Source: a virus. From it: a stretch of DNA of 64,000 nt. The translations under genes and the position numbers were made by a program. The notes under the pieces were generated by a model. That model was not told the origin of the DNA, did no database searches, and worked only from the letters and a program-made list of their open reading frames with translations. Shown in pieces: positions 36,844 through 64,000 of this stretch (the first letter of the stretch is position 1; each line of letters opens with the position of its first letter). The stretch is taken from the IMG/VR virus record IMGVR_UViG_3300024255_000004. The stretch is one strand, 5' to 3'.

Positions 36844-36865
36844 ATTGTCTGTAAACAGTTATTAG

Positions 36866-36873: not shown

Positions 36874-36878
36874 AAGGT

Positions 36879-40612: not shown

Positions 40613-40621
40613 GAGAAATAT

Positions 40622-40771
40622 ATGAATAGTATGTTAGAAAAACTTCGTAATTGGCACGAATTTCAGTTAACTGGATTTCAAGATGCAATGAGACTGGACG
40701 ATTACCACATGTTGTGGTTATCATTTGGAAAAGGAGTAGTATTTACAATATTATTTTTATGGATTATCTAA
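40622..40771 (+). CDS. Small membrane protein, 49 aa (not in the ORF track)
   Basis: SD AGGAG; MNSMLEKLRNWHEFQLTGFQDAMRLDDYHMLWLSFGKGVVFTILFLWII; TAATG-coupled to the next gene. Confidence 0.65.
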   Translation: MNSMLEKLRNWHEFQLTGFQDAMRLDDYHMLWLSFGKGVVFTILFLWII

Positions 40772-41406: not shown

Positions 41407-41621
41407 ATTCAGAATGTCCCCAACCTATCGAGTGGGACGATGAACTCGAATCATCAGAACTTGAATTAGGAGATGTCGAAGCTGCATCTGATTTCGTATG
41501 GCAAGTTCTCTTCCTTACACCAATAGAGTTGGTCTACATAGGATTCACAATGACAGTCCTTGCAACATATGGACTTTCTATTTACTATATCTATAAACGA
41601 ATACAAAAGAAATTCTCATAA
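41403..41621 (+). CDS. Small membrane protein
   Basis: Acidic N-terminus plus a TM helix; coupled to genes on both sides. Confidence 0.6.
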   Translation: MNSECPQPIEWDDELESSELELGDVEAASDFVWQVLFLTPIELVYIGFTMTVLATYGLSIYYIYKRIQKKFS

Positions 41622-43459
41622 TGTATAGTTGGAAAACAGTCCTAATCACCATTGGTGTATTTGTAGGACTTAAAATTTGGTCTCCTTACTTAGTAGAGAA
41701 TATTAAGTGGTCTTACTTTGATGTTCTTCATCAGAGTCAGGAGAAAGTTCAGGTAGAAGATATTGTCTTAGTAGACATAGACGAGAAGTCACTTGAAGTG
41801 TTCGGTCAGTATCCTATCAAACGTAGTATCTATAGGGATTTACTCCTTGACACTCATTACACTAACACACATGTTTTCACTCAACTCTTTAATCAACCTG
41901 ATAGAAATCAGGGAGAAGACGAAATCTTTGCAGAAGGATTGGTCAATAGATTAACAATTCTATCAGCTGCACCCACCATTCAAAAGAACACTGGTTCTGC
42001 ACCCTTCGTAGGAAACTCTACTTTCGGTAGTGGAAATGCAACAGACTACCTATGGAACTTCTCAGGAATTTCAAGTCCTATCAGGATACTTCAGGACAAT
42101 ACTTATGGAGTTGGGGTCACTGTTGCAACACCTAGTGTTAGTGGAACACCAAACTTTGACGGGACAACTAGGTCTATCCCTTTAATCATAACTGCAAATG
42201 AACAGGTATATCCGTCTCTTGCACTGGAAACACTTCGTGCATTAAAAGACCAACCTTCGTATCAAACTAAAATTACAGAAGTTGGAGTAGAGTGGGTAAG
42301 AATGGGCAGAGACAAACCTATCACCACCACTCCAACGAGTGACGTTATGGTGTCCTATTGGAACGAATTCCAACGGGTTTCTGCTGTCGACTTACCTAAT
42401 CTAAATCTTACTAATAAAATTCTGATATGGGGTTTGACTGCAGAGGGATTGAATAATCCAGTTTCAACTCCAGTGGGAATATTGTATCCTCACGAAGTGC
42501 AAGCGAACCATATCCAAACCTCTTTGTCAGGAGTTCAAATACAACAATCCTACTATCTTGAATTGCTTGAGATTGCTCTTCTGATGACAGTTCTTGTATT
42601 GATATTGGTGATGGTTTACAAACTTCCCACAATTCTTTCGGGGGTAATGAGTCTAACACTTGTAGGACTTCAAATCTTCGGGAGTTATTATATTTGGACT
42701 TCAGAGCTCGTTCTTTTCGATACCTTCTTTTCATCAATTGCCTCCTTGATTGTTTTTGGTCATGCCTCTTTCAATCAATACTATACAACCTACCAACTCA
42801 AAGAAGAAATCAAGAAGCAGTTCCAAAAGTATTTATCTCCCGACATGGTTGACCAACTTGCAGAAAACCCCGATTTACTTAAATTGGGTGGAGATAGAAA
42901 AGAGTTAACTTTCATGTTTATGGACATATGTGGATTCACCCCCATAAGCGAACACTACATGAAACAAGACGACCCCGAGGGATTAGTGGAACTCATTAAC
43001 AAATTCCTTGACATGCAAACAAAGATAATCCTAAATAACAATGGAACCATTGATAAGTATATGGGTGATTGTATTATGAGTTTTTGGAATGCACCTTTAG
43101 ATTGTCCCGACCATGCCGAGATGGCAGTCAAGTCTGCAGAAGAAATACTAATTGCTACCAAGGAACTCAATGAAGAACTCAAACCACTCGGTCTTCCCCC
43201 TATCAATGTTGGTATTGGTATTAACACTGGGGAGTGTATCGTTGGAAACATGGGGTCAGAACTTAGATTTGACTATTCCGTCATTGGAGATGCAGTTAAC
43301 CTCGGAGCTAGACTCGAAGGACAAACGAGAAATTATGATGGGGTGGACGTGTTGTTGGGACAAGAAACATATCTACAATGTCCGTCTAGAGCATTCACTG
43401 AAGTCGATAGGATTACAGTCAAAGGAAAATCTGAACCAGTCACAGTTTACACTATCTGA
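41621..43459 (+). CDS. CHASE2-domain class III adenylate cyclase
   Basis: CHASE2 motifs (IVLVDIDEKSL..GQYP, DGTTRSIPL, PSLALE, TPVG), three TM helices, and catalytic FMDICGFT, DKYMGD, GDAVNLGARLEG and KGK. Confidence 0.93.
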   Translation: MYSWKTVLITIGVFVGLKIWSPYLVENIKWSYFDVLHQSQEKVQVEDIVLVDIDEKSLEVFGQYPIKRSIYRDLLLDTHYTNTHVFTQLFNQPDRNQGEDEIFAEGLVNRLTILSAAPTIQKNTGSAPFVGNSTFGSGNATDYLWNFSGISSPIRILQDNTYGVGVTVATPSVSGTPNFDGTTRSIPLIITANEQVYPSLALETLRALKDQPSYQTKITEVGVEWVRMGRDKPITTTPTSDVMVSYWNEFQRVSAVDLPNLNLTNKILIWGLTAEGLNNPVSTPVGILYPHEVQANHIQTSLSGVQIQQSYYLELLEIALLMTVLVLILVMVYKLPTILSGVMSLTLVGLQIFGSYYIWTSELVLFDTFFSSIASLIVFGHASFNQYYTTYQLKEEIKKQFQKYLSPDMVDQLAENPDLLKLGGDRKELTFMFMDICGFTPISEHYMKQDDPEGLVELINKFLDMQTKIILNNNGTIDKYMGDCIMSFWNAPLDCPDHAEMAVKSAEEILIATKELNEELKPLGLPPINVGIGINTGECIVGNMGSELRFDYSVIGDAVNLGARLEGQTRNYDGVDVLLGQETYLQCPSRAFTEVDRITVKGKSEPVTVYTI

Positions 43460-43763
43460 ACTACCTAATACGTTTGATTGGACTGCATTCTATACTCTTC
43501 AACTACTAGATATCTACACAACATATCGTGGACTTAAATATGATTGTGTCGAAGAACTAAATCCACTCGTAGGAGAGTCTCCTTCAGTCCCTAAAATGTT
43601 CGCAGTTAAGACTGCAATTCTATTACCTGCTATCGAGATGGATAGAAGAACCCACGAATTAACTTCAGATACATTCGACTATATGAACATTCTTATGGGT
43701 GTAGTGATTGTAAATAACATTCAACAAGTAAGTGATGCAAAAAAATATTGCAATAAAAGATAA
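43206..43763 (+). CDS. Membrane-associated protein (DUF5658-like) overlapping the cyclase 3' end; start uncertain
   Basis: LDIYTTYRGL..ELNPL motif; the only plausible start codons lie inside the cyclase gene. Confidence 0.5.
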   Translation: MLVLVLTLGSVSLETWGQNLDLTIPSLEMQLTSELDSKDKREIMMGWTCCWDKKHIYNVRLEHSLKSIGLQSKENLNQSQFTLSELPNTFDWTAFYTLQLLDIYTTYRGLKYDCVEELNPLVGESPSVPKMFAVKTAILLPAIEMDRRTHELTSDTFDYMNILMGVVIVNNIQQVSDAKKYCNKR

Positions 43764-43770
43764 AACCCCC

Positions 43771-43819
43771 TTGAAATTTTAGAAAAAGTCCTTATAATAG
43801 TAGTATGGTGTTATAAATA
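43771..43819 (+). promoter_or_regulatory. Tandem sigma70-like (TTGAAA..TATAAT) and late (TATAAATA) promoters for hsp20
   Basis: CCCCC-TTGAAA at 43771, TATAAT at 43793, TATAAATA at 43812. Confidence 0.65.
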
Positions 43820-47538: not shown

Positions 47539-50055
47539 ATGGATTTCTATACTAACGTTTGCAGAACACGTGACAAAATACTTGTCAAAGGATATAAGAA
47601 CGGAAAACAACAAAAACTATCCGTATCTTATAGACCCAATCATTATATCCCTTCTAAGAAGGGAGACACACCATTCAAATCATTAGACGGAAGGTCACTA
47701 GAAGTAGTGAACCTAAACTCTATGGGTGGTGCAAGAAAATTTCGAGAGAATTATGCTGGAACTCATGGATTTGAAATCCATGGATATGACCGATATATCT
47801 ATACATATATTGCAGATAAATTTCAAGGTGAGATAAACTGGAATCTAAATCAGATTAAGATTGCAACACTTGATATTGAGTGTGAGTGTGAAGACGGATT
47901 CCCCGAACCAACCCTTGCAACTGAAAAGGTCAATGCAATTTCAATGAAACCACTTGGTAAAGATACACATGTTTTTGGTATCGGGCCTTGGGAACACAAC
48001 AGAACAGATGTAATCTATTACAATTGTTTAAATGAGGTTGACCTTTTAACCCAGTTCGTTAAATACTGGAGACAAGAGTGGTTCGATATTATCACAGGTT
48101 GGAATGTAAACTCTTTTGATATCACCTATCTCTGTAATCGTATTGATAGAATACTAGGAGAGGGAGAACATAAGAAACTCTCACCATGGGGTCAATGTGA
48201 TGTCAGAGAGTTCATGTCTACTTATGGTCAGAAACAAATGATATTCAATCTATATGGTATCAATGTTCTTGACTACCTTGAGATATATCGTAAACATACA
48301 TTCGTAAATCAAGAATCCTACAAACTAGAAAACATTGCACAAGTAGAACTTGGAACTGGTAAACTAGATTACTCAGAGTATGGAAATCTACATACACTTT
48401 ACAAACAAGACTATCCAAAGTTCTTGGAATACAATGTCAAAGACGTTGTCCTTGTTGAAGAACTAGAGGACAAACTAGGACTATTGGAACTAACACTTGC
48501 AATGTCCTATAATGCAAAGTGTAATTATAATGACACATTCGGAATGGTGAAGTATTGGGAAACCATAATCTACAATCACCTCAAAGACCAAAACATACAA
48601 ACCCCACCCCAAAGATTAAGGAGTGGTAATGATAAGACACACCAAATTGTTGGTGCATATGTCAAAGACCCAATAGTCGGTGGACATGATTGGGTAGTGT
48701 CATTTGACTTGAACTCACTGTATCCACATATCATTATGCAATACAATATCTCACCCGAGAAAATGATAAAAGGAAACAGACAGGACTTAACCATTGATAG
48801 AATGTTAAACAAAGAATGTGACTTATCATATGTTCACCAACAGGGTCATGCAGTGTGTCCAAATGGTGTAATGTATTCTAAAAACAAACAAGGATTTCTT
48901 CCCGAACTTATGGAAAAACTCTATGACGAGAGAAAGGAGTGGAAGAAGAAAATGATTAAGTATCAACAAGAACGAGAAGTCTGTAAAGAAACCAAACGTA
49001 AGAAAGAACTTGATACACTTATCAAACGTGCATACAACAATCAACAGGTTCGTAAGATTGCACTTAACTCTGCATATGGAGCTCTTGCAAATCAATACTT
49101 TGCATTCTTTTCTATTGACCTTGCAGAGTCAATCACAACCAGTGGTCAGTTAATTATTAAGTGGTCAGAGAAAACTATCAATGAGTTCCTAAACAAAACA
49201 CTTGGAACAGATAACGAAGACTATGTGATTGCAATGGACACTGATTCAGTTTATATCACTATGGATAAACTGGTCAAGAAAGTCTTACCCGAAGAAACAG
49301 ACAAGACCAAGATTGTGGATTTCCTAAACAAGTCAGAAGGTATGATTGAACAAGTTCTTGCACGTGGTTTTGACGACCTTGCAGAATATACTAATGCATT
49401 CCAACAGAAAATGCAAATGGGTCGTGAAGTAATTGCAGATAGAGGTATTTGGACTGCAAAGAAACGATACATTCTAAATGTCCATGACAACGAAGGTGTC
49501 CGACTTGCAGAACCCAAACTTAAAATGATGGGTATTGAGACTGCAAAGTCCTCTACACCACAATGGGTCAGAACTAAACTAACAGAAGCCTTAAAGGTAG
49601 TAATGAATGGAACTGAACAGGACTTATGGGAGTTCGTAGAGACTGCACGAAAAGAATTTAGAAACCTTCCACCCGAGGAAGTTGCATTTCCTAGAGGTGT
49701 CAAAAACCTTGTGACGTATTCAGACCCGACTCATATCTATGGGAAAGGAACACCGATTCATGTCAGAGGTTCACTCTTACACAATCACTTACTGAAATCT
49801 AAAAATCTTGACTTAAGATATGAAATGATTAAGAACTCAGATAAGATTCGTTTCTCATATCTTACAACACCAAATCCAATCAATGAGAATGTAATATCAT
49901 TCTCAAGTTCTCTACCAAGAGAGTTGGACTTACATAGATTTATTGACTATGATATGCAGTTTGATAAAGCATTTAATGAACCACTAAAGAATATTGTGAA
50001 CTTAATTAACTGGAATGTAGAACCAGTTGCAAGCTTAGATTCTTTTTTCGGATAA
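47539..50055 (+). CDS. gp43: DNA polymerase gp43 (family B)
   Basis: Exonuclease DIE and GWNVNSFD; polymerase SFDLNSLYPHI, KIALNSAYG and DTDS. Confidence 0.98.
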   Translation: MDFYTNVCRTRDKILVKGYKNGKQQKLSVSYRPNHYIPSKKGDTPFKSLDGRSLEVVNLNSMGGARKFRENYAGTHGFEIHGYDRYIYTYIADKFQGEINWNLNQIKIATLDIECECEDGFPEPTLATEKVNAISMKPLGKDTHVFGIGPWEHNRTDVIYYNCLNEVDLLTQFVKYWRQEWFDIITGWNVNSFDITYLCNRIDRILGEGEHKKLSPWGQCDVREFMSTYGQKQMIFNLYGINVLDYLEIYRKHTFVNQESYKLENIAQVELGTGKLDYSEYGNLHTLYKQDYPKFLEYNVKDVVLVEELEDKLGLLELTLAMSYNAKCNYNDTFGMVKYWETIIYNHLKDQNIQTPPQRLRSGNDKTHQIVGAYVKDPIVGGHDWVVSFDLNSLYPHIIMQYNISPEKMIKGNRQDLTIDRMLNKECDLSYVHQQGHAVCPNGVMYSKNKQGFLPELMEKLYDERKEWKKKMIKYQQEREVCKETKRKKELDTLIKRAYNNQQVRKIALNSAYGALANQYFAFFSIDLAESITTSGQLIIKWSEKTINEFLNKTLGTDNEDYVIAMDTDSVYITMDKLVKKVLPEETDKTKIVDFLNKSEGMIEQVLARGFDDLAEYTNAFQQKMQMGREVIADRGIWTAKKRYILNVHDNEGVRLAEPKLKMMGIETAKSSTPQWVRTKLTEALKVVMNGTEQDLWEFVETARKEFRNLPPEEVAFPRGVKNLVTYSDPTHIYGKGTPIHVRGSLLHNHLLKSKNLDLRYEMIKNSDKIRFSYLTTPNPINENVISFSSSLPRELDLHRFIDYDMQFDKAFNEPLKNIVNLINWNVEPVASLDSFFG

Positions 50056-51168: not shown

Positions 51169-52221
51169 ATGTCATTTATTAAAGATTTAGTCAAATCAAC
51201 TGGAAACGAATATGCAAATATAGTTTCAGATGGTGTGGCTGCTGGAGACGTAGATACATTCGTAGATACGGGTAGTTATGTCTTCAATTCACTTTTGAGT
51301 GGTTCACTATATGGTGGACTTCCCTCAAACAAAATCACTGCAATCGCAGGTGAATCTGCAACAGGAAAAACTTACTTTGCCTTGGGTATGGTAAAACAAT
51401 TCCTTGAAGACCACCCCGATTCTGCAGTAATATATTTCGAATCTGAATCTGCAATCAGTAAAACAATGATTGAAGATAGAGGAATCGATTCAAAAAGAAT
51501 GGTTATCGTGCCTGTGGTCACTGTTCAAGAATTCAGAAAACAGGCAATATCCATACTTGATAAGTATCTTGAAACACCCAAGGATAAGAGACCACCTATG
51601 ATGATGTGTCTTGACTCACTTGGTATGTTATCAACTACTAAAGAAATCGAGGACACTGCCGAGGGTAAAGAAACCCGAGACATGACTCGTGCTCAAGTTG
51701 TTAAAGGTGCATTCAGAGTTCTAACACTTAAGTTAGGACGTGCTGGTGTTCCAATGATAGTCACGAACCACACATATGATGTGATTGGTTCTATGTTCCC
51801 TCAAAAAGAAATGGGTGGTGGAAGTGGTCTCAAATATGCAGCCTCTTCAATCATTTATCTTTCTAAAAAGAAAGAGAAAGAAGGAACGGAAGTCGTTGGT
51901 AATATCATTCATTGTAAGAATGCAAAATCTAGATTGACTGTAGAAAATAGAATAGTTGACGTAAGACTATCTTATGACAGTGGACTGGATAGATACTATG
52001 GTCTTTTAGACCTTGCACTTGCAAGTGGAATCTTTGAGAAGAGTTCCACACGTATCAAACTACCAAATGGTAAAACAGAATTTGGTAAAACAATTAACAA
52101 CAACCCCGAGAAATACTTTACACCTGATGTAATGGAAAGACTCGAAACAGTAGTAGAAGGATACTTTAAATATGGAAACACGCATAGAACAGACGATACT
52201 GAAGAATCTGATTCGGAGTGA
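51169..52221 (+). CDS. uvsX: Recombinase UvsX
   Basis: [14 protein letters not shown] and [12 protein letters not shown]. Confidence 0.96.
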
Positions 52222-53569
52222 AGAGTTTGCACGAAAGTGCGTCCCATTCATTAAGTCAGAGTATTTTGCCGATACTGAAGAAAGAACTGTATTCAATGAA
52301 ATACACGAATACTTTCAGAAGTATACTAAATCACCAACTGTAGAAGCACTTCTCATAAACCTTGAAAACAATACTTCTCTTAACGAGAATATTGCAAAGG
52401 GTTCAAAAACTATAGTTGATAAGATTGGTAAAGATAAGGAGACCACACCAAGTGAGTGGTTAGTGGAAGAAACGGAGAAATGGTGTAAGGATAGAGCAAT
52501 CTATATTGCAGTCATGGATTCGATTGAAGTCATTGACAAGAAATCACAGAGGTCTACTGGTGAAATACCCGAACTATTGAAGGACGCACTTTCCGTGTCT
52601 TTTGACACAAACATTGGACATGACGTGTTAGAAGATGCAGATGCAAGATTTGAATTCTATCATACGGAAGAAGAGAAGATTCCGTTTGACTTAGAATACT
52701 TCAACAAGATTACCAAAGGTGGATTACCTAATAAAACACTTAACATTGTTCTTGCTGGAACTGGTGTTGGTAAATCATTGTTTATGTGTCACCAAGCAGC
52801 TTCATGTCTTATGATGAACAAGAATGTTTTATACATTACTATGGAAATGTCAGAAGAAAGGATTGCAGAGAGAATCGATGCAAACACTATGAATGTTCCT
52901 ATGAAAGATTTACCCGATTTATCTAAGAAAATGTTTGATAAGAAAGTTGAGAAACTAAAAAACAAAACTAAAGGTAAACTCATAGTAAAAGAATACCCTA
53001 CTGCAACTGCACACGTTGGACACTTCAGACACCTATTACAAGAATTGGATATCAAGAAAGACTTCCAACCCGATATTATATTTGTCGATTATCTAAACAT
53101 ATGTGCTTCACATAGAGTGAGGCCAGGTGCTGGTGCAAACTCTTATACACTTGTAAAGAGTATTGCAGAAGAACTTAGAGGACTTGCAGTGGAATTTAAC
53201 GTTCCATTAGTAAGTGCAACCCAAACAACCCGAAGTGGTTATGGTTCCACTGATATTGGACTCGAAGACACTTCGGAAAGTTTTGGTCTACCTGCGACTG
53301 CAGACTTAATGTTTGCACTGATTACCAGTGACGAACTAGAAGAACTAGACCAACTCGTAGTGAAACAGTTGAAGAATCGATATAATGACCCCACAATCTT
53401 TAAAAGGTTTGTAATCGGTATTGATAGAAGTAGAATGAAACTCTATGATTGTGAACAAGAAGCACAAGAAGAACTATTTGAGAATGATTCTACCTACAAT
53501 GATGATGTTCCTGTATTTGATAGAGGAAGGAATGATGGACAGAAGAGAGATTTTAACGACTTCAAATAA
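52172..53569 (+). CDS. gp41: Replicative helicase gp41
   Basis: [25 protein letters not shown] and KQLKNRY. Confidence 0.96.
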
Positions 53570-54336: not shown

Positions 54337-55539
54337 ATGGGTGCAAAAAATCTACATTTAGAACACTTAGAAGACGAGATTATCAATCAAGGGATTGATG
54401 GTGGTCGTGGTGCTATAAACTTTTTACAGGGTCTTAGAGACATGTTAAAAGGAAACTCTAATTCAAGTGTTAATATGACTGTTAAGTGGGACGGAGCTCC
54501 TGCTATTTTCTGTGGTCAACACCCCGAAACTAATCAATTCTTTGTTGCAAAGAAATCTCTATTCAATAAAGAACCTAAGTTTTACACTTCAGAACATGAA
54601 ATTAAAAATGCAGACGAACTAAGTGGTGCATTAAAAGAAAAGTTCTTAACTTCATTTCAATGTTTATCTAAACTATCTTGGAATACAATCATGCAAGGTG
54701 ATTTAATGTATACCAATGATAAGAAAATGCAAAAGATTGACGGAAAATCATTCGTCACATTCCAACCAAATACAATCATGTATGCAGTAGATATTAATTC
54801 AGATTTAGGTAAAGAGATTGCAAACTCTAAAATGGGTATTGTGTTTCATACCACATACACTGGTTCTACAATAGAAGACTTGGGTGCAAGTTTTGGTGCA
54901 AACATATCTAAACTAGGAAACAGTAAAGATGTTTGGATTGACGATGCAACATATAAAGATGTCAGTGGTAAAGGTTCAATGACTGCAAAAGAAACACTTA
55001 CACTTACACAAGAACTATCCAAAACAGGTAAAGCCTTCCACGGAATCAAAAAGAAAGATTTAGATAAGTTCCAAAAAATACAGGAAGAGATTGGAAAGAA
55101 AGGTGCTGGTGCATCTTACAAAACATATTGTAATACACTTATCAGAGGTGGTAGTTTCAATCCAACATACAAAGGATATATGGAACACTTCGAAAGCTAC
55201 TGGAGAGATAAGGTGGTTGCAAAGGTCAAAATGGAAAAGACCAAACAAATCAAACAAGAGATTGGTGAACAACTTTATAACGAACTCAGAAGTTTAAAGA
55301 ACATGATAACTAATCTAACTTCCTTTATGGGACACCTAGTAGTTGCAAAACAACTTATCATAAATGCACTAAATAGAGTAAAGAGTATAGGAACTTTCAA
55401 AAAGACTGCAAATGGTTTTGAGGTAGTAAACCCCGAAGGATACGTTGCAATCGATAAAACAGGAAGTGCAGTTAAACTTGTAGACAGAATGGAGTTTGCA
55501 TTCAATAACTTCACTGCACAAAAATCATGGGACAAGTAA
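54337..55539 (+). CDS. Conserved T4-like protein (DUF6267-like) with ligase-type nucleotidyltransferase motifs
   Basis: HLEHLED, TVKWDG (motif I), QGDL, PEGYV (motif IV) and VKLVDR (motif V). Confidence 0.7.
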   Translation: MGAKNLHLEHLEDEIINQGIDGGRGAINFLQGLRDMLKGNSNSSVNMTVKWDGAPAIFCGQHPETNQFFVAKKSLFNKEPKFYTSEHEIKNADELSGALKEKFLTSFQCLSKLSWNTIMQGDLMYTNDKKMQKIDGKSFVTFQPNTIMYAVDINSDLGKEIANSKMGIVFHTTYTGSTIEDLGASFGANISKLGNSKDVWIDDATYKDVSGKGSMTAKETLTLTQELSKTGKAFHGIKKKDLDKFQKIQEEIGKKGAGASYKTYCNTLIRGGSFNPTYKGYMEHFESYWRDKVVAKVKMEKTKQIKQEIGEQLYNELRSLKNMITNLTSFMGHLVVAKQLIINALNRVKSIGTFKKTANGFEVVNPEGYVAIDKTGSAVKLVDRMEFAFNNFTAQKSWDK

Positions 55540-56948
55540 TGAAATCATTCAATGCATTTCTAACAGAAGCTAAAGATAAGGGTGTAGTGTTTACTTTTGG
55601 TAGATTCAATCCACCTACAACAGGTCATGGAAAGTTAGTAGACAAACTTAAAAAACAATCGGGTGGTGATGACGTTCTGTTATTCACTTCACATTCAAAT
55701 GACAAGGTTAAAAATCCACTATCACACCGAGACAAGATATCGTATCTAAGAAAATTCTTTGGGAAGATTGTTGCAGACGTAAATGCAAGAACAGTATTTG
55801 AGATTGCAACAGAATTACATAAGAAGAAATATAAAAGAGTCTCAATGGTTGTTGGGTCAGACAGAGTAAAAGAGTTTGAAACACTACTAAACAAATACAA
55901 TGGTGTTAAAGCACGTCATGGATTCTATAAGTTCGAAGAGATTAATATTGTATCTGCTGGAGAGAGAGACCCTGATGCAGATGATGTCAGTGGAATGTCT
56001 GCAAGTAAACTCAGAGGATATGCAGAACAAGGAGACTTTGACAATTTCAAATTAGGTGTTCCAACAAAGAATAAAGGATTAGTTCAGAAACTTTATAACG
56101 ATATCCGTAAAGGAATGGGTATTGCAGAAGGAACACTACCACACTACATGGTAGAAGATTTGATACAAGAAGGAGTCTATGACCCAGGCACTTTCAAAGC
56201 AGTTTTCCTAAGTGGTGGGCCAGGCAGTGGTAAATCTGCAGTTGTAAAGAAATTAGGTTTGACTGCACTTGGTTTAAAAATGGTCAACACTGATAAAGCA
56301 TTTGAGAACGGACTAAAGAAAGCAGGAATGTCACTTGACCTTAGAGGTGCAGACTTTGATAAAGTAGACCCTATCCGTGCAAAAGCAAAAAGTATTACAG
56401 GTAAAAACTTAGATGCATATATCGATGGAAGACTAGGTCTTATCTTTGACACTACAAGTGCAAAGTCGGGTAAGATTAAGAACTACAAAAAAATGTTAGA
56501 CACATTAGGATATGAATACAAAATGATATTTGTTAATGCAAGTCTAGACAATGCACAAAAAAGAAATGACTTAAGGTCTAGAAAACTACCACCCAAAATT
56601 GTAAAAGGTGACTGGGACGCTGCACAAAAGAATGCAACGGAATATAAATCAATTTTTGGTAGAGACTTTGTAGAGATTAAGAATGATGATGACATTGCAA
56701 GTCTTGATAAAAAGGCAAATTCACTATACAGTAAACTACTAGGTTGGTCTACTTCATTCCCTAAAAACAAAATTGCAATGAAATGGAAATCTTACGAACT
56801 GATGAAGAAGACTCTTGGGTATTCATCTATGAGAAGTAAAGATGCGGTGAAAAAACCACCAACAGATAAACCAAGTCCGTTTGGGTCAAATTTAAAAACA
56901 TTCAAAAGTAGAAGGACTGGTAAGAAGACAGTAATCGGAAAGATATAA
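55539..56948 (+). CDS. HxGH cytidylyltransferase-like domain fused to a P-loop kinase
   Basis: Leader MKSFNAFLTE; FGRFNPPTTGH, VVGSDR and MSASKLR; then GGPGSGKS, IFDTT and RN..RSR. Confidence 0.85.
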   Translation: MKSFNAFLTEAKDKGVVFTFGRFNPPTTGHGKLVDKLKKQSGGDDVLLFTSHSNDKVKNPLSHRDKISYLRKFFGKIVADVNARTVFEIATELHKKKYKRVSMVVGSDRVKEFETLLNKYNGVKARHGFYKFEEINIVSAGERDPDADDVSGMSASKLRGYAEQGDFDNFKLGVPTKNKGLVQKLYNDIRKGMGIAEGTLPHYMVEDLIQEGVYDPGTFKAVFLSGGPGSGKSAVVKKLGLTALGLKMVNTDKAFENGLKKAGMSLDLRGADFDKVDPIRAKAKSITGKNLDAYIDGRLGLIFDTTSAKSGKIKNYKKMLDTLGYEYKMIFVNASLDNAQKRNDLRSRKLPPKIVKGDWDAAQKNATEYKSIFGRDFVEIKNDDDIASLDKKANSLYSKLLGWSTSFPKNKIAMKWKSYELMKKTLGYSSMRSKDAVKKPPTDKPSPFGSNLKTFKSRRTGKKTVIGKI

Positions 56949-56956
56949 ATAGTATT

Positions 56957-58432
56957 ATGTTAGAAGAACTTAGAGAAAAATTACGTAAGACCCAACAAGA
57001 CAAAGAAGTTGAAGGCAAGAAAGGTTCTCAACCTAAGAAGTATTATGCTAAAGACGCAGACGGAGACGAAATGTCTCAGTCTACAAAAGATAAACGTGCA
57101 GACCACTTTAAGAATAATAAAGATAAAGAAGGTGAAGATGCATTTAAACCAGCACCTGGCGATTCAAAAGCAGATACTAAACCTTCACAACATACTAAGA
57201 AGTATAAGAAAATGTTTGGAGAAGGTGCAGCTGATAAATCTCTACAAAAGAAAGCAGACAAGAGTGGAATGCCAGTTGGTATTCTAAAACAAGTCTACAA
57301 ACGTGGAGTTGCAGCTTGGAAAGGTGGACATAGGCCAGGAACTACACCCGAACAATGGGGACATGCACGTGTTAATTCTTTTGTGACTAAATCCAGTGGA
57401 ACATGGGGTGGTGCAGACCAAGACCTTGCAAAGAAAGTTTCGGGTAAATCAGAGTCAATAGAAGAAGGAATTGATATCAGAAAACAACTCAAAAAGATTA
57501 AAGGATTAACTAAGAAACAATTAGAAACATTATCAACAATGAACACTTCACAACTAACAGTTTTAGTTCAACAGTTAAGTGGTTTGGTTATGGGTGAACA
57601 AGACGAGTTAGAAGAAAGATATGCAGATAGACTAAGAGACAAAAATAAGTCTCAACAAAAGGCACATCAAAAAAGAATGATGAAGTCTGCAAAAAAATCT
57701 ATCAAAGACTATGATGCAAAGAATAAGAACAAGAACGAAGAGTCTGAAGTAGAAGAAGGTAAACTTGTCACTGATTACAGAAGTGTCTTAGATTTCATAT
57801 TTAAAAATATCAAAAAGATGATTGAAAAGGAATATGAAAAGAACTCTGAAAAAGGTTTAGGAATGATTAATCAGTTAGGTTCTTATGTTGGAATGAAAGT
57901 CACTGATAAGAAACAGGAGAAAAATAGACTCTTCCTTAAGTTTGGTGACAACATACAAGAAGACGCTACAGTTGACGCTGCAAATCTAAAAGCAAAACAA
58001 ACTGAAGAACTAGAAAGATTAAAGGCAAAACAATTACAAGAGTTAGAAGCACTACAAGATAGACACGAAAGAGAAACAGACAAAGTCAATCAACAGAAAG
58101 AAAAAGAAGCTGCAAATAAACAAATTCAAGCAAAACGTGATGCAGATAGAAAAGCTGCAGAGAAACAAAACGAAGAAAGAGATTACAAAAAAGAGTATGA
58201 GAACTACCACTCAGACCCCGAACAAATTAAAAGACGTGCAAAAAGAAATGAAGCACGAAGAAGTCTAAAGGACAGAAAAGGTATAAAAGGAAAGGACGTT
58301 CACCATAAGGACAACAATCCTATGAATAATGACAAGTCTAACTTATCAATTGTATCACAAAAATACAATAGAACAGAACCAAGACTTAGAAAATTGAAAG
58401 AGAAGGGGATACTTCCAAGTGGCAGGAAATAA
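56957..58432 (+). CDS. Modular Lys/Glu-rich late protein with a C-terminal HNH motif
   Basis: Late promoter at 56944; module VYKRGVAAW..HRPG..QWGHARVNSF; C-terminal DVHHKDNNPMNN..NL....YNR. Confidence 0.75.
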   Translation: MLEELREKLRKTQQDKEVEGKKGSQPKKYYAKDADGDEMSQSTKDKRADHFKNNKDKEGEDAFKPAPGDSKADTKPSQHTKKYKKMFGEGAADKSLQKKADKSGMPVGILKQVYKRGVAAWKGGHRPGTTPEQWGHARVNSFVTKSSGTWGGADQDLAKKVSGKSESIEEGIDIRKQLKKIKGLTKKQLETLSTMNTSQLTVLVQQLSGLVMGEQDELEERYADRLRDKNKSQQKAHQKRMMKSAKKSIKDYDAKNKNKNEESEVEEGKLVTDYRSVLDFIFKNIKKMIEKEYEKNSEKGLGMINQLGSYVGMKVTDKKQEKNRLFLKFGDNIQEDATVDAANLKAKQTEELERLKAKQLQELEALQDRHERETDKVNQQKEKEAANKQIQAKRDADRKAAEKQNEERDYKKEYENYHSDPEQIKRRAKRNEARRSLKDRKGIKGKDVHHKDNNPMNNDKSNLSIVSQKYNRTEPRLRKLKEKGILPSGRK

Positions 58433-59096
58433 ACACGACAACGGAGTTCACGAACAGGGAACAGACGAAACAGTAAAAGCATATCAAGAAGATACGCCTG
58501 GTCAATCAGTTGAGAAATACGTAAAAGAGAATCAAAAATCATATCACGATTCAAAGAAAACATTTTCTCAAATTGCAATCAACGAAACACTCGATACACT
58601 TCAAAAAGAAAAAACCAATCTACTAGACAATCCATTTCGTTTAGGTTCTATGATGTATTTTGAATGTATTAATGAAGCAAGAAACCTTATCAAAGAAGAC
58701 CGATACAGACTTACTGAAGTTGATAAGAATATAATGGAAACAGATATTGGTGAGTTCGAAGTGTATGAGGGAGAATTAGTTCCACTAGATTGTCCACAAT
58801 ATGAGTTTATAAACGAAGAAGAAGAACCCGAACTCAACAAACCAAAAGCAGGTGGCCCTAAGAAATACTATGTATATGTTAGAGACCCACAAACTAAAAA
58901 GATTAAAAAAGTCACATGGGGAGACACTACAGGTCTCAAAGTGAAACTCGGAAACGAGAAAGCAAGAAAATCCTTCGCTGCACGACATAAGTGTTCACAA
59001 CAGAAAGATAAAACTACTGCATCATATTGGGCATGTAGATTACCTTACTATGCAAAACAGTTAGGTCTATCAGACGGGGGAAATTTTTATTGGTAA
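58419..59096 (+). CDS. Modular late protein
   Basis: GTG start; FRLGS...VPLDCP module and KKYYVYV...RKSFAARHKC...YWAC module. Confidence 0.7.
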   Translation: MAGNKHDNGVHEQGTDETVKAYQEDTPGQSVEKYVKENQKSYHDSKKTFSQIAINETLDTLQKEKTNLLDNPFRLGSMMYFECINEARNLIKEDRYRLTEVDKNIMETDIGEFEVYEGELVPLDCPQYEFINEEEEPELNKPKAGGPKKYYVYVRDPQTKKIKKVTWGDTTGLKVKLGNEKARKSFAARHKCSQQKDKTTASYWACRLPYYAKQLGLSDGGNFYW

Positions 59097-59108
59097 TGGA
59101 GATACATA

Positions 59109-59366
59109 ATGAAAAAAGAATTATATCATACTTATGCAAAAGACGACAGATATGCTGAAGTCTTTAAGTCAAAAGAAGGTTTTGAAGTAGACCTATACGA
59201 AGAGAAAAAACTCTTAGAAACAAGACAACTATACAATCATTCAGAATCATATGCAGAGGATTGTGCCGATAATTGGGTTCAAGGTTTGTTTAATATAGAG
59301 AAAGAAGGAAGTTTCTACGGCTATAACGAAAGAGATGATAATTACTATCCCGAGATAGATGACTAA
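59109..59366 (+). CDS. Hypothetical protein
   Basis: SD GGAG; HSESYAEDCADNWV. Confidence 0.7.
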   Translation: MKKELYHTYAKDDRYAEVFKSKEGFEVDLYEEKKLLETRQLYNHSESYAEDCADNWVQGLFNIEKEGSFYGYNERDDNYYPEIDD

Positions 59367-59652
59367 CCCTTATAAAGACCAAGTATATACCCAACACGGG
59401 ACTGAACTGAAATACGTCATTAGAACGTTTTCTGCAGAAGTAGACGAAAACGAACTGGTTTGGCATAGAGATAAAGAGTCTAGAACTATCCATGTATTGA
59501 GTGGAAATGGGTGGGAATTACAAAAAGAAGACAAATTACCCGAAGAATTAGAGATAGGAAAAGACTATTTTATCATAAAGAATAATTACCATAGAGTAAT
59601 AAAAGGTGAAGGAGATTTGGTTCTCCGTATAGACAGTAAAAATAACATATAA
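59359..59652 (+). CDS. Small cupin-like protein
   Basis: ELVWHRD, GWELQ and YHRVIKG. Confidence 0.7.
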   Translation: MTNPYKDQVYTQHGTELKYVIRTFSAEVDENELVWHRDKESRTIHVLSGNGWELQKEDKLPEELEIGKDYFIIKNNYHRVIKGEGDLVLRIDSKNNI

Positions 59653-59745
59653 AACTGCACTAAATATTACTGCAAAATCAACTAATAGAGAGATTGTTCT
59701 TAATATCATGCACATGACCTCTCAAAAATTATAAATAATACTGTT

Positions 59746-60348
59746 ATGAGTTATAAATCAGAAAACTGGAAAGAAAAACTAGAACAAGTCCGTAGTCACA
59801 TCGCTTTGAAAGAAGGGAGTGTGGAAAAAACTGCAGACGAAATAATTAGTGAAGATATCGAAAACGACCTTCTAACTGGATTCGAAGAAGACGTTAAAGT
59901 AGTCGAAGATGAAATCACTGAAGAATTAGTTCTTGAAGCCTCAATGGGTGATATGATTAAGAAGGTATTCAATACAGATAGTGAAACAGAAGCTATGGGT
60001 ATTGCAAAACTTCTTAACATGACAGACGTTAAGGTTGCACTTGCAATGCAGAAACAAAATCCTAATGGATTTAAGAAGACTACATTCGGTATGGGTGCAG
60101 ACAATAAACAAAGAGACATGATTAAGGATAAAGACCTTATGAAAATGTTTAAGAAAGCAGGTGTCAAACCTCTTAAAGATTCAGTCGAAGTTGAAGAAGA
60201 AAAATCAGTAAAAGAATCAGTAGAGAAATCTGCAGAAAAACTCGTAGAAAAAAATATGCTTGGTAGACTTGCAAAACAATTACATTTAACAACAGAAGGT
60301 AAACAGAAAATGTTTGACTACTTCGAAAAAGGGGAATTAGAACAATGA
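59746..60348 (+). CDS. Late Lys/Glu-rich protein
   Basis: Late promoter at 59730; acidic linkers flank a basic module. Confidence 0.7.
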   Translation: MSYKSENWKEKLEQVRSHIALKEGSVEKTADEIISEDIENDLLTGFEEDVKVVEDEITEELVLEASMGDMIKKVFNTDSETEAMGIAKLLNMTDVKVALAMQKQNPNGFKKTTFGMGADNKQRDMIKDKDLMKMFKKAGVKPLKDSVEVEEEKSVKESVEKSAEKLVEKNMLGRLAKQLHLTTEGKQKMFDYFEKGELEQ

Positions 60349-60599
60349 AACTAACATCAATGGGTCTATCACCCGAATTACTAGAAGCGTCTAGAATAGT
60401 TTTACAGAACTCAAAAGAATACGAAGAGTTCTTCCAATCTGCACTTAAAAAATTTGGTGTAGATTCCCCTGCTGATTTTAAATCAGATGAAGAGAAAAAG
60501 AAATTCTTTGATTACATAGATAAAAACTATAAAGGTAAAAACGAAGAAGAAGTTGCAGAAGGTGAATGTGCCTCTGATAAAAAGAAAAAACAATATTAG
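60345..60599 (+). CDS. Small late protein
   Basis: FFQSALKKFGVDSPAD...KKKFFDYIDK. Confidence 0.7.
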   Translation: MKLTSMGLSPELLEASRIVLQNSKEYEEFFQSALKKFGVDSPADFKSDEEKKKFFDYIDKNYKGKNEEEVAEGECASDKKKKQY

Positions 60600-60607
60600 G
60601 AACTGGT

Positions 60608-62440
60608 ATGAACCTCTTTTACGAAGCCAAAAAGGTATTAGATAAGGACGGGAAAGTTAACCCACTCGGCCCTTATGGAAAACAGAAACTTACTGGACGT
60701 GAGATTCAAGTCTATTTCCGTAGAAACAAAGTCAAAGACAAAGTAGTCAAGAAAGCAGTCGAGGTTGCATTAGACCTTGGTGGTGCAATGGATATTGCAA
60801 TCAAATCCATTAAAGACTATTACGGGGATAAAGTCCTAAAAGCAAAAGAAGTTCAAAATGCACTTCAATTTGCAAACGAAGAATCATTCAAAGATTCATT
60901 CAATATGTTAGACGAAGATTACAAAAAAGTAATCAAAATGTTTCCAAGAGATAGAGATTGGAAAAAACTTATAACAAAACACAAGAGACATATTGATGCA
61001 TTCAGAAGTGATAATCAAAAAGATTTACCTAAAAAAGTAGAAGACGATTTACTAGGTTGGGGTTCACAAAATGGTGAAATAGGTAGTAAAGACGATGCAG
61101 AAGACTTTATAATGTCAATCCTTGACGAGAAATACAAACCTTATTCCGACTCAACCTTTTCTAGATGTGTAGACTTCTACATTCAATTCAGAGGTGGTAA
61201 AGGAGACAGAATCACTTCAGAAGAGAATAAGAAAGACTTCGAAAAAGCAAAGAAGATGATTGATGCATATTGCAAATCAAACAAAATCAAACAAAAACCA
61301 GTTTACTCAACACCTGAAGAAGGTTCAAGTGCATACAAAGTCGGTCTTATGATTGACCCAACTTACAGTAAAACAGATGACTATAAAAATGGTGTAGACT
61401 TACAACCTTTATATGTTGAATTAGGTAAACTTAAAACTGCAGAAGACCATGGTGGTGGTTGGGATAAACCATCAACAAACGAATCAGAAGTTTTAGAAAA
61501 GAAAAGTAAAATCAAATATCGTGGTAATCTAAAAGGTTTACATGAATCTATAAAAAGTATAATGACAGAAGGTAAGAACCTTATGCCTGATTTACAAAAG
61601 ATTGTAGACAAAAAGAGTGCAACTAAAGTTGGTGGTGTAATGGTTGATATGTTTACTGCTTCAATGATTACACAAATCTATGGTAAAGTAAACGACAAAA
61701 ACAAAGAGAGAATGGAGAAATCTAATATCTCTACACTTGTTGACCTTGCACAAAGAATGATGCAAAAGTCAGAGAACGACCCACTCGAAGAAGGAACAAT
61801 GGCTATCGGTATTAAGTCTAGAGACAGAAAAGAAGTTGAAAAATCACAAAAACAACTTGAAAAAATGTTAAAAAAAGATGGTAATAAAAAAGTAGGTTCT
61901 AAAGAAGGTAAGAAGTTTGATGAAGTTTTAGATACTTATATATTATCAGACGACCAATTAGCAGATGAATTTGCAAATCCAAAAAACAAAAATATGAAAG
62001 TTATAGATTTGTTGAAGAAACATTCAAAAAGACTCAATGTTAATTTTGATGAATCTGTAGAAGAAGGAAATGCAGTATCAAGTGCTCAACAAGCTGCAAT
62101 CGCAATTGCAAAGAAAAAGAAAAATGAATCAGTCATGGATTCTTACAGACAAATGTGGGAATCAGAAAATCTTGAAGAGAAAAAAGAATTTAAACAAAAT
62201 GATATCGATAAAGTTGCAAAACTTACTGATAGAAACGAACACACTAAATCACTCATACACATTGCAAAATCAATGGGTGACAAAAAGTCATTAAAAAAAT
62301 TAGAATTAATCGACAAAATGCATAACGAATATGGTCACATGCCTAAAGGTCTTATGGACATGAGAAATGAAGTCTATGATGACCTGAAGAAGGATATGGA
62401 AAAATATTCTAATGGTAAAGACATGTATAATGCAACATAA
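60608..62440 (+). CDS. Large modular Lys/Glu-rich late protein
   Basis: 610-aa ORF with basic modules separated by xLxE/xVxE linkers. Confidence 0.75.
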   Translation: MNLFYEAKKVLDKDGKVNPLGPYGKQKLTGREIQVYFRRNKVKDKVVKKAVEVALDLGGAMDIAIKSIKDYYGDKVLKAKEVQNALQFANEESFKDSFNMLDEDYKKVIKMFPRDRDWKKLITKHKRHIDAFRSDNQKDLPKKVEDDLLGWGSQNGEIGSKDDAEDFIMSILDEKYKPYSDSTFSRCVDFYIQFRGGKGDRITSEENKKDFEKAKKMIDAYCKSNKIKQKPVYSTPEEGSSAYKVGLMIDPTYSKTDDYKNGVDLQPLYVELGKLKTAEDHGGGWDKPSTNESEVLEKKSKIKYRGNLKGLHESIKSIMTEGKNLMPDLQKIVDKKSATKVGGVMVDMFTASMITQIYGKVNDKNKERMEKSNISTLVDLAQRMMQKSENDPLEEGTMAIGIKSRDRKEVEKSQKQLEKMLKKDGNKKVGSKEGKKFDEVLDTYILSDDQLADEFANPKNKNMKVIDLLKKHSKRLNVNFDESVEEGNAVSSAQQAAIAIAKKKKNESVMDSYRQMWESENLEEKKEFKQNDIDKVAKLTDRNEHTKSLIHIAKSMGDKKSLKKLELIDKMHNEYGHMPKGLMDMRNEVYDDLKKDMEKYSNGKDMYNAT

Positions 62441-62441
62441 C

Positions 62442-62978
62442 ATGAAAGATTTATTTAAAACATATCGTGAGATGCACTTACAAGAAGTGAAACAAAAAGA
62501 AGTTGATTCACTGAAAAAACTATCTAAGGACATGCAAGCAGTTCTAAAAGGTTATCAGAAGATTGTAAAGATGGGTGACAACGAACTTAAGGACAAGAAG
62601 TATAACAAAGACTATGAAGCAGTCCTTAATGCAAGAGATGTAATCTTCTCATTGATTGGTAAAGTAAACACTCAAAAACTTTTAAATAAAGAAGAGACAA
62701 CAGTAGACTTAGACGAAAGAATAAATTTTCATGGTAAAAGTCCTGCTGAGAAAAAGAACTCAGAGTTCGATAGAAAATCAGAAATCAATGGTTATAAAAA
62801 GATTTTAAAAACTATTGAAAAGATTAACAAAGACCACGAGAAGTTTCAATATAACAATCGTGCAGAAGGCCCATCTAATATATTTAAAGGTCTACAAGAA
62901 GTTGAAAGAACATGTTATGACATGATACGAGAAATCGAACAAGGTAAATGGGACGGAACAGTGGACTTAGATGACTAA
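62442..62978 (+). CDS. Late protein, two modules
   Basis: Leader MKDLFKTYREMHLQE; internal VDLDE. Confidence 0.7.
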   Translation: MKDLFKTYREMHLQEVKQKEVDSLKKLSKDMQAVLKGYQKIVKMGDNELKDKKYNKDYEAVLNARDVIFSLIGKVNTQKLLNKEETTVDLDERINFHGKSPAEKKNSEFDRKSEINGYKKILKTIEKINKDHEKFQYNNRAEGPSNIFKGLQEVERTCYDMIREIEQGKWDGTVDLDD

Positions 62979-63517
62979 TGGATAGAGTAGACGCAAGATA
63001 CAAAACCTTTAAAGAGAAATTAAAGAAACTCGGATACATTAAAGATTCTGCAAAACAGACTAACAAAATCGTAGAGAAAATTGGTGATTTTGGAATGATG
63101 TCTGATACAGGAAACAAAAAAATTGCTCGTGCAGTTTCACAATCAAAGAACGAGAAAGACCTGCGTGCAAAGTTAGAGAAAATCTCTACAATGGCAAAAG
63201 GTAAGTATGCTGAAGCAGGTGAAGATGAAGTAATTGATAGAGCATTAGATGCACTTGGTAGTAAAGCGAAGGGAGTTCAAAACAGACCCGACGCTGCAAT
63301 GCTAATGCAACTTCGTAAGTTTAAAGACGGAACTAAAGATGGTGAGGTCAGAACAGACGATATGCAGAAAATTAAGGTAAAAAGAGACGATGCGGTGAAA
63401 GTTCATGACGTTTTAATGAGGGTTAAGACACCCATTCGGTCTAAATACCTACAGTTATTACAAAAAGACAAAAAGTCTTTCGATAAAGCATTTAAAGCAA
63501 TCTTAAAGGTTGCATAA
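62978..63517 (+). CDS. Late basic protein
   Basis: TAATG-coupled; starts VDARYKTFKE. Confidence 0.7.
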   Translation: MDRVDARYKTFKEKLKKLGYIKDSAKQTNKIVEKIGDFGMMSDTGNKKIARAVSQSKNEKDLRAKLEKISTMAKGKYAEAGEDEVIDRALDALGSKAKGVQNRPDAAMLMQLRKFKDGTKDGEVRTDDMQKIKVKRDDAVKVHDVLMRVKTPIRSKYLQLLQKDKKSFDKAFKAILKVA

Positions 63518-63530
63518 CTAGGAGAAAAAC

Positions 63531-63815
63531 ATGGCACTTTGGGGATTATTAGACAACGAAGCTTCTAAACCAAAATATCTTAACACTGCTGATAAAGCAG
63601 AATGTTATGGTGCTGATACAGCTGAGGTCGGTGCGACTGCTGGTGTTAATTCAGAAGGTTGGGTGTTAAGAAAAGTAGTAGGGTCAAGAACTCAATTTGA
63701 AACATTGGTTGCAATGTCTTCAGGTTCAATGGGTGCTGACGTTGCTGACTTTGATGACGACTCAGACGTGAATACACCTGATATCGATGACGATACAGTA
63801 TTATCAGACAGTTAA
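63531..63815 (+). CDS. Conserved probable virion protein
   Basis: SD AGGAG; MALWG...KPKYL...GWV...ETLVAM. Confidence 0.7.
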   Translation: MALWGLLDNEASKPKYLNTADKAECYGADTAEVGATAGVNSEGWVLRKVVGSRTQFETLVAMSSGSMGADVADFDDDSDVNTPDIDDDTVLSDS

Positions 63816-63828
63816 TAGAGGATAAATT

Positions 63829-64000
63829 ATGAAAACATTTAAGAACTTCATTATTGAAGAGGGTGGAAGTCAAATTCCAACAGATTCTAACGCATTTTTT
63901 GTGGGTGCAGCTGGACTAAGTTCAGAAAAAGTCCCACATGATATAGACGATGCAGACGTTAAAGCTAAGGTTAATGCAATCTTAGGACAAACTGCAGTAT
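63829..64000 (+). CDS. Protein with a capsid-targeting-like leader; 3' end truncated by the window
   Basis: SD GAGG; MKTFKNFIIEEGG..., open to the window end. Confidence 0.65.
   Translation, partial: MKTFKNFIIEEGGSQIPTDSNAFFVGAAGLSSEKVPHDIDDADVKAKVNAILGQTAV

Follow-up and report, generated by a model that had tools for sequence, protein, structure and literature searches.

Candidate capsid-cargo polyproteins with shuffled modules in a marine T4-like phage

Known systems and the locus studied

Bacteriophage T4 has a set of internal head proteins, IPI, IPII and IPIII (with Alt), which are small, basic and Lys-rich, and which vary among related phages. The first 10 residues of IPIII are enough for capsid loading; within this leader residues 4 and 7 matter for targeting and residues 8 and 10 for processing, Asp at position 10 blocks processing, and the prohead protease gp21 cuts after L/I-x-Glu (PMC9026906; PMC3012670). 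The T4 comparison sequences used here were taken from record NC_000866. In these, IPII and IPIII start MKTYQEFIAE|A and IPI starts MKTFKEFT..., with a leader ending ITE|A (a bar marks the cleaved or candidate bond), the Lys content is 12.5-15%, and the maturation site of the major capsid protein gp23 is LTE|A. The subject of this report is a block of mostly Lys-rich open reading frames (ORFs) in a stretch of 64,000 nucleotides (nt) from the IMG/VR virus record IMGVR_UViG_3300024255_000004, hereafter the window. The phage is a marine T4-like myovirus of the pelagimyophage/Melnitz type, and its major capsid protein is 66% identical to the counterparts in Methylophilales phage Melnitz and Pelagibacter phage HTVC008M. 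The block, which extends from ∼54.3 kb to beyond 64 kb, probably encodes capsid-cargo polyproteins that are cut at common joints by the S77-family prohead protease of the phage and delivered with its DNA.

The block resembles the T4 system in its small, basic, Lys-rich modules, in the protease family, in the 10-residue leader of some of its ORFs (aromatic residue at 4, Phe at 7, Ile/Leu at 8, Glu at 10) and in candidate cut sites that fit the L/I-x-Glu rule. Unlike the T4 proteins, there are many modules per ORF, connected by internal joints and free in their order, and enzymes are found among the presumed cargo. The two largest ORFs also lack a capsid-targeting sequence (CTS) of the T4 kind, and the block lies beside replication genes. 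If its products are indeed cut and injected, the block would broaden the internal-protein concept of T4, which so far covers single tagged proteins, to polyproteins with shuffled modules. A literature search for polyproteins of this kind in marine T4-like phages found no account of them.

Three other systems invite comparison. Polyvalent proteins (Iyer et al. 2017) also combine many unrelated domains in one polypeptide, and are predicted to enter with the DNA and to be freed by proteolysis (PMC5512222). However, they embed their own peptidase (MPTase), together with a MuF, ART and ParB-like repertoire, while release in the present case would occur in trans, by the prohead protease acting at a fixed joint. 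Pfam and PHROGs scans of the block ORFs revealed none of these hallmarks (embedded peptidase, MuF/portal fusion, typical domains); the domains that Pfam did find are CTP_transf_like, a P-loop kinase, DUF5824 and a sub-threshold HNH_3. In the giant phages phiKZ, 201phi2-1 and SPN3US many head proteins are cut after Glu and part of them are ejected into the host (PMC9026906, PMC10052503), but the motif is S/A/G-x-Glu rather than hydrophobic-x-Glu, and most are single proteins shedding propeptides, not shuffled beads-on-a-string chains. Finally, the cytidyltransferase/NMNAT-like proteins of cyanophages S-SZBM1, S-CREM2, S-SCSM1 and S-CBWM1 are homologous to the first domain of one block ORF, and are considered below together with the virion proteomes.

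Organization of the block

The block starts directly after the gene for a gp41-type helicase. Its features are as follows; ORFs are named by their first position in the window, and lengths are in amino acids (aa).

54337-55539, + strand: DUF6267 ORF (Pfam DUF6267, E=1.4e-102), translationally coupled to ORF 55539
55539-56948, + strand: cytidylyltransferase-like and P-loop kinase fusion (Pfam CTP_transf_like at residues 19-122, Zeta_toxin/AAA_33 at 220-387)
56957-58432, + strand: candidate polyprotein 1, 491 aa, isoelectric point (pI) 9.7
58419-59096, + strand: 225-aa ORF with a GTG start; phrog_7595 for the C-terminal part
59109-59652, + strand: two small overlapping ORFs of 85 and 97 aa, not Lys-rich, conserved in relatives and in Melnitz gp19
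59746-60599, + strand: acidic 200-aa ORF (pI 5.0, 8 [LIV]xE) and a Lys-rich 84-aa ORF
60608-62440, + strand: candidate polyprotein 2, 610 aa, pI 9.0, seven modules
62442-63517, + strand: two Lys-rich ORFs of 178 and 179 aa
63531-63815, + strand: 94-aa ORF, not Lys-rich
63829-64000, + strand: start of a 146-aa ORF that runs past the end of the window; leader MKTFKNFIIE|E

The original prediction described the ORFs of this region as strings of Lys-rich modules, separated by short acidic linkers that end in hydrophobic-x-Glu. The Lys richness is evident (14.6-19% in eight block ORFs, against ∼2-13% in most other ORFs of the window), and every linker motif that had been listed is present: LRE (residues 5-7), SIEE|G (170), LEE|R (220), VEE|G (267), IQE|D (335) and QNEE|R (407) in ORF 56957, and LDE|D (103), LDE|K (174), VLE|K (297), LEE|G (395), VEE|G (486) and LEE|K (524) in ORF 60608. 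The QNEE|R site, which had been called looser, departs from the hydrophobic-x-Glu pattern in the window, but the corresponding joint in relatives reads EVEE|D. As a description of architecture, the string of modules applies to ORFs 56957 and 60608 but not to ORF 55539, which is a fusion of two enzymes. In this ORF, IAE|G and IQE|G sit between the two enzyme domains, and the protein begins with a 10-aa CTS-like leader, MKSFNAFLTE|A, that is kept in relatives.

ORF 56957 is made up of a leader, the two halves of DUF5824, three small basic modules, a coiled coil and, at its end, an HNH-like module, with joints after residues 7, 89, 170, 214/220, 267, 335 and 407. The end module matches Pfam HNH_3 below the cut-off (E=3e-4, 20.8 bits against 24.8) and phrog_4590, a family of unknown function (E=3e-12), and is 54-68% identical to small pelagipodophage ORFs, some of which are annotated as HNH endonuclease. 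ORF 60608 can be divided into modules A (1-103), B (104-174), C (175-321), D (322-395), E (396-486), F (487-524) and G (525-610). Neither ORF 60608 nor the majority of the small block ORFs could be assigned to a family by Pfam and PHROGs, and these scans found no peptidase domain inside any block ORF.

Two minor points concern neighbouring ORFs. ORF 58419 overlaps the end of ORF 56957 by 14 nt (58419-58432), and its N-terminus, MAGNKHDNGVHE, is conserved and in relatives heads ORFs with other module sets. The DUF6267 ORF contains KWDG (KxDG), which resembles motif I of covalent nucleotidyltransferases (ligases and capping enzymes).

Module shuffling and conserved joints

Scanning with ORF 60608 identified 73 related IMG/VR viral loci (individual loci carry handles such as L003), and all of their ORFs were compared with those of the window. 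Within this sample the modules of ORF 60608 behave as cassettes. Module C is absent in L010, module E is substituted in L017 and L003, and two loci have a permuted order, with A placed after B/C and D in L030 and after B in L058. An ORF boundary coincides with the B/C joint in L051, module E stands alone in a 228-aa ORF of L043, and module B is N-terminal in L069 and L072. ORF 56957, when aligned with 19 relatives, behaves likewise, and L050 mixes modules of both polyproteins in one ORF. The homology between L003 and the first of the two ORFs at 62442-63517 stops after DLDE|. Kinase, transferase and DUF5824 occur as separate ORFs or in other fusions in L072, L043-L069, Melnitz and HTVC008M. 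Shuffling with breakpoints at the linkers had been proposed as a check on the idea of joined modules, and is what is observed across the related loci; the homologues are not collinear over their length, and the joints are conserved.

The coincidence of breakpoints and joints was quantified by an all-against-all comparison of 390 distinct block ORFs. Homology breakpoints fall within 1 aa of [LIVM]xE 2.8-4.1 times as often as at random, the ratio growing with the identity of the match, and for matches of at least 75% identity 46% of breakpoints are at most 3 residues from [LIVM]xE (13% at random). The corresponding ratios are 0.7-1.3 for [LIVM]xD, 0.7 for [LIVM]xK and 1.0 for Asp alone. As the sequences are related, the breakpoint counts are not independent events, which leaves the contrast between Glu and Asp unaffected.

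In collinear homologues, the hydrophobic residue at P3 and the Glu at P1 of the joints are conserved, while P2 varies freely. At joint 395 of ORF 60608, for example, Glu is found at P1 in all 20 homologues and a hydrophobic residue at P3 in 19 of the 20, with at least 9 different residues at P2. Glu is kept in 16 of 17 homologues at joint 321, 17 of 18 at joint 335 of ORF 56957, all 9 at 174, and 12 of 14 at 103. E395 of ORF 60608 and E267 of ORF 56957 are among the very few columns with at least 90% conservation in alignments that are otherwise poorly conserved. The commonest joint, Glu-Ser-(Val/Ile/Leu)-x-Glu-Gly, is found between many different modules, in varied combinations of left and right neighbour. 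Its codons vary (TCA, TCT or AGT for Ser; GGT, GGA or GGC for Gly), which indicates that the peptide, and not a recombination site in the DNA, is under selection.

These data bear on the alternative that survives best, although we consider it unlikely: that the block encodes multi-domain proteins that stay uncleaved in the cytoplasm (for example for nucleoid binding or host takeover), the joint being a hinge that also provides microhomology for recombination, and MK.FKE a favoured start context spread by recombination. Short shared joints would favour recombination whatever their role in the protein, and cleavage is so far unobserved. The position of the block, in a variable region on the replication side that is the counterpart of the T4 41-61 gap, fits this alternative as well. 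However, a hinge needs no Glu in preference to Asp, yet breakpoints are enriched at [LIVM]xE and not at [LIVM]xD. Nor does it need a hydrophobic P3 combined with a free P2. The joint codons vary synonymously, even between TCN and AGY for serine. The free permutation of module order further argues that the modules work separately.

A side result of the alignments concerns DUF5824. In many relatives, a Cys-containing mini-module of ∼30 aa (CWDGY ... PNCVP) takes the place of residues 221-267 of ORF 56957; it was seen in L001, L013, L020, L050, L054 and Melnitz gp18 (9001-10953). Because this mini-module splits DUF5824 in some relatives, the Pfam family spans two separable modules.

Joints in predicted structures

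In the AlphaFold model of ORF 60608, none of the nine [LIVM]xE motifs lies in a confident domain, where 5.4 are expected (p=0.002), and all nine are in low-confidence linkers. This avoidance of the motif inside domains is a further point against uncleaved, hinged proteins. In ORF 56957, eight [LIVM]xE are found in linkers where 2.75 are expected (p=0.001). Independent domains with disordered linkers had been predicted for both ORFs, and the models agree: the predicted template modelling scores (pTM) are very low (0.31 for ORF 60608, 0.25 for ORF 56957), and the minima of the predicted local distance difference test (pLDDT) fall at the sites that had been named. For ORF 60608, pLDDT is below 50 at residues 92-114, 173-176, 290-358, 368-401, 481-491 and 514-530, and for ORF 56957 it dips at 163-172, 209-216, 245-267 and 332-338.

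The models are less informative on function. With the ORF 60608 model, Foldseek found nothing in the PDB at E ≤ 0.001, and module C found only generic ferredoxin-like look-alikes in a protein atlas, so that these searches assigned no function to any module. Only DUF5824, the two enzymes and the HNH-like end module have a recognisable fold or family.

The joint with a following Gly is also over-represented. The block ORFs contain 11 [LIVM]xE-G where 2.9 are expected (p=2e-4), while the remainder of the window has 20, close to the expected 21.4; the motif was picked after inspecting the data.

Leaders and virion proteins

Modules that occur as stand-alone ORFs begin with an MK.FKE-type leader. 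Its last residues are hydrophobic-x-Glu, and when the sequences are aligned they end in the column where the joint of the polyprotein ends. Three cases show this equivalence of leader and joint: module B, the best conserved module of ORF 56957, and the second half of ORF 58419. In the last of these an internal leader copy, KKTFSQIAINE|T, is the counterpart of MKTFHELAINE|T, with which a stand-alone ORF begins in relatives. Among the small block ORFs of the relatives, at least 15 different families begin with a leader of this type. A protein that stands alone has no use for a linker, and the end point common to leader and joint is consistent with a processing site that sets the mature N-terminus. 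It is also a point against uncleaved proteins, as stand-alone ORFs need no hinge, and still their leader ends at the joint column.

The leaders that had been reported at ORFs 55539, 62442 and 63829 of the block, and at two ORFs elsewhere in the window, all read as claimed. The latter two are:

13569-13874, + strand: small ORF between the portal and protease genes (the T4 gp67/68 slot), starting MKSFAEITVE|L
25623-27122, + strand: 499-aa ORF with no family; leader MKSFSEF..., then ISE|G; late promoter motif at 25610

The leaders of ORFs 55539 and 63829 agree with T4 IPII and IPIII at all four key positions (4, 7, 8 and 10), and those of ORFs 13569 and 25623 agree in part. The homologue of ORF 63829 is full-length in L003 (13180-13620), and its leader is kept in at least 14 relatives. 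ORF 56957 has its own conserved leader ending in L/I-x-E, while ORF 60608 starts MNLFYE, with Phe at P3. As a control, T4 was scanned for ORFs starting MK(S/T)(F/Y); apart from IPI, IPII and IPIII, a CTS-like continuation was seen in gp61.1 alone.

The transferase domain of ORF 55539 belongs to a 'cytidyltransferase' family that is widespread in T4-like cyanophages (564 phage records). Proteins of this kind have been reported in the virion proteomes of S-CREM2, S-CBWM1, S-SZBM1 and S-SCSM1 (PMC10665884). For S-SZBM1, mass spectrometry of virions purified on CsCl identified S-SZBM1_140 by 2 peptides, with a coverage of 13.5% (PMC9146016). This protein shares 47% identity with the transferase domain of ORF 55539 (E=3.7e-38) and starts MRFRQFIIE|A. 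It differs in its C-terminal part and has no kinase. A DUF6267 gene precedes it, as in the window, so the pairing of DUF6267 and cytidylyltransferase genes is kept as far as this cyanophage (genes 141/140). The cyanophage proteome papers mention neither a targeting leader nor protease joints (PMC9146016, PMC10665884). It is from the CTS-like leaders, together with the presence of a homologous cytidylyltransferase in cyanophage virions, that we infer packaging of the block proteins.

Among cultured phages, Melnitz carries the same block after its helicase gene. Melnitz gp15, the homologue of ORF 25623, starts MQGFKTFLSE|A, and the Melnitz DUF6267 protein has its own 13-residue leader, which ends ITE. 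A 130-aa protein with 21% Lys has an MKKFSE leader, a 650-aa fusion combines the transferase, DUF5824 and further modules, and two Lys-rich proteins contain homologues of modules E and F. At the DNA level, a near-identity search of the block region against cultured phages gave no match, and neither did a tblastn search of ORF 60608 against the same set.

Prohead protease and genomic setting

The window encodes a T4-type structural module that includes both the prohead protease and the scaffold core, two components that also belong to the T4 internal-protein system:

9297-11285: sheath
11296-11793: tube
11842-13380: portal
13852-14505, + strand: prohead protease, gp21 homologue and proposed cutter (Pfam Peptidase_S77, E=8e-39; phrog_207 head maturation protease, E=3e-77)
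14544-15896, + strand: scaffold, gp22 homologue (Pfam T4_CASP, E=2.5e-68), containing LEE|G, LKE|G and VEE|G
15917-17212: major capsid protein, gp23, carrying LAE|AAP

This confirms the gp21-type protease that the original prediction had placed at 13852-14505, as well as the LAE|AAP of gp23. The gp22 homologue, described there as full of sites, has 28 [LIV]xE where 17 are expected (z=3.2). The S77 enzyme is the only protease seen within the window.

The replication module consists of genes for the gp46/47 nuclease, DNA polymerase (47539-50055), UvsX (51169-52221) and the gp41-type helicase (52172-53569) that precedes the block. In the relative L003, which is 83% identical, the block ends soon after the homologue of ORF 63829, and genes for primase and ribonucleotide reductase are found a few genes further on. 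The block thus fills the variable helicase-primase gap.

Late promoter motifs

Fifteen exact copies of the T4-type late promoter motif TATAAATA are found in the window. All are on the + strand, where 5.6 would be expected for both strands together, and most lie a few nt ahead of an ORF start, as at ORFs 56957, 59746 and 25623. Across the 73 related loci the motif shows a strand count of 139 to 3 and keeps its position. The copies serving the block are:

54292, + strand: late-like promoter CATAAATA, with one mismatch, before the DUF6267 ORF
56944-56951, + strand: TATAAATA, 5 nt before the ATG of ORF 56957, kept in 7 related loci
59730-59737, + strand: TATAAATA, 8 nt before the ATG of ORF 59746, kept in 28 related loci

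In 8 related loci an exact TATAAATA is located 37 nt upstream of the DUF6267 homologue. The label 'late', which the region had been given on first reading, is thus supported by promoter motifs that are canonical in sequence and conserved in position, and the block is predicted to be expressed late.

The motif lies close to the start codon of many ORFs, that of the portal gene among them: 5 nt before the ATG at 4219, 11829, 25610, 36866 and 56944, and 8 nt before the start codon at 36311, 43812 and 59730. A Shine-Dalgarno sequence or an mRNA leader would not fit into so short a distance, so that late mRNAs may be leaderless. Late promoter motifs are also found in a curli-like operon of the CsgF/CsgG type, at 36300-43800 of the window; curli-like genes are known from pelagimyophages (PMC7029224).

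Proposed processing and alternatives

The explanation that we favour, and hold to be probable, is that the block encodes capsid cargo. Its proteins would be made late and loaded into the prohead, where the S77 prohead protease would cut them after hydrophobic-x-Glu. The long ORFs would be strings of independently folding, mostly basic modules of ∼40-120 aa with short acidic joints. Cutting would yield ∼20-25 small proteins, mostly of pI 9-10, and a few short acidic peptides, and would also free the cytidylyltransferase-like enzyme, the P-loop kinase and the HNH-like module. In size and charge the predicted products resemble the processed internal proteins of T4; like these, they would be kept with the DNA inside the head and pass into the host on infection. 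The common joint would allow modules to be gained, lost, reordered and moved between ORFs without loss of function. That every module ends in the same joint would then explain why related phages carry different module sets. Loading, cutting, ejection and a role of the modules in the host are all steps that we infer from sequence patterns and the comparison with T4.

Several observations weigh against this explanation. The number of [LIV]xE is at chance in both flagship ORFs (8 against 6.4 expected in ORF 56957, z=0.7; 7 against 8.5 in ORF 60608, z=-0.6). The count per ORF was therefore discarded as a discriminator, as it fails to separate these ORFs from chance, and the tests of placement and breakpoints described above were used instead. 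The dips in the AlphaFold models are in part due to the mosaic alignments on which they are based. The N-termini of ORFs 56957 and 60608 are not T4-like CTSs, and T4 gp61.1, a hypothetical protein of 54 aa encoded beside the primase gene (NC_000866, 18966-19130), starts MKTFKEFIKE|D, the same kind of start, which is also a point in favour of uncleaved proteins. To our knowledge gp61.1 is not a known virion protein, so that a CTS-like leader is suggestive and not diagnostic. The block adjoins replication genes rather than head genes, and late motifs also precede genes for non-virion proteins, such as the curli-like operon (36.3-43.8 kb). Because these genes share the motif, late expression alone does not imply a virion protein. 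The HTVC008M homologues are mostly without joints, and the enzymes there are in another order. The Melnitz and HTVC008M papers report neither virion proteomics nor the joint feature, and the literature search found no N-terminal data or cleavage assay, either for this phage or for relatives in culture. The cyanophage proteome work itself carries the caution that abundant proteins may co-purify with virions (PMC10665884).

It may be added that T4 gp61.1 occupies the same helicase-primase gap as the block studied here.

A second alternative accepts loading and cutting by the prohead protease but restricts the proteins to head assembly, either as core or scaffold components or as basic DNA-packing proteins that are expelled or remain inert. 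T4 provides a precedent, since gp22, gp67 and gp68 are cut into fragments by gp21 (PMC9026906). The product of ORF 59746 is acidic, rich in sites and similar to a core protein, and most modules are basic (pI 9-10) and have no recognisable fold or family. Core parts are normally conserved, however, whereas the modules vary even among relatives of 83-93% identity, and the same strings hold cytidylyltransferase, kinase and HNH-like domains. This makes a pure assembly role rather improbable.

Cutting of the joints in the cytoplasm by another Glu-specific protease, of host or phage, without packaging, would account for Glu-Ser-Val-x-Glu-Gly being longer and more fixed than the L/I-x-Glu rule of gp21, but it is highly improbable given that the S77 enzyme is the only protease seen in the window (no search for others was made in complete genomes of relatives), the scaffold has joints of the same flavour, and the polyproteins embed no peptidase domain. 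Intein-like or self-cleaving joints were rejected as there is no conserved Cys, Ser or Asn at the joints, and internal translation starts because the modules begin with Gly, Lys, Asp or Arg and not with Met.

For the capsid-cargo explanation, the role of the delivered modules is a separate question. A function in anti-defence or host takeover is suggested by analogy only, with T4 IPI and Alt as models, and roles in DNA packing or in the head core are equally possible. A wider proposal is more tentative and at present rather doubtful: that marine myophages of the pelagimyophage/Melnitz type carry a combinatorial library of mini-proteins and enzymes, connected by a universal joint, which supplies about two dozen injected effectors as a swappable kit for counter-defence and takeover. 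Phages of SAR11 and OM43 bacteria are among the most numerous marine viruses, and most of their genes have no known role. If the strings are indeed cut into injected proteins, the hydrophobic-x-Glu joint and the short leader would form a rule by which the delivered proteome of a whole phage group could be read from sequence, a hypervariable region would be explained, and there would be a natural design for loading a changeable multi-protein cargo into T4-type capsids. The cassette occurs in cultured phages (Melnitz, HTVC008M), which makes the claim directly testable.

Other observations

ORF 25623 follows the gp46 homologue in the window, and its homologues, HTVC008M gp126 and Melnitz gp15, are located directly upstream of DUF6267. 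All three have a TPKTD...SLK.G..QLMSGG stretch in common. The N-terminal domain of ORF 63531 (MALWG..D..SKPK.L) is shared with HTVC008M gp135 and Melnitz gp23, both annotated as 'S-layer', and the product of this ORF may be a virion surface or structural protein.

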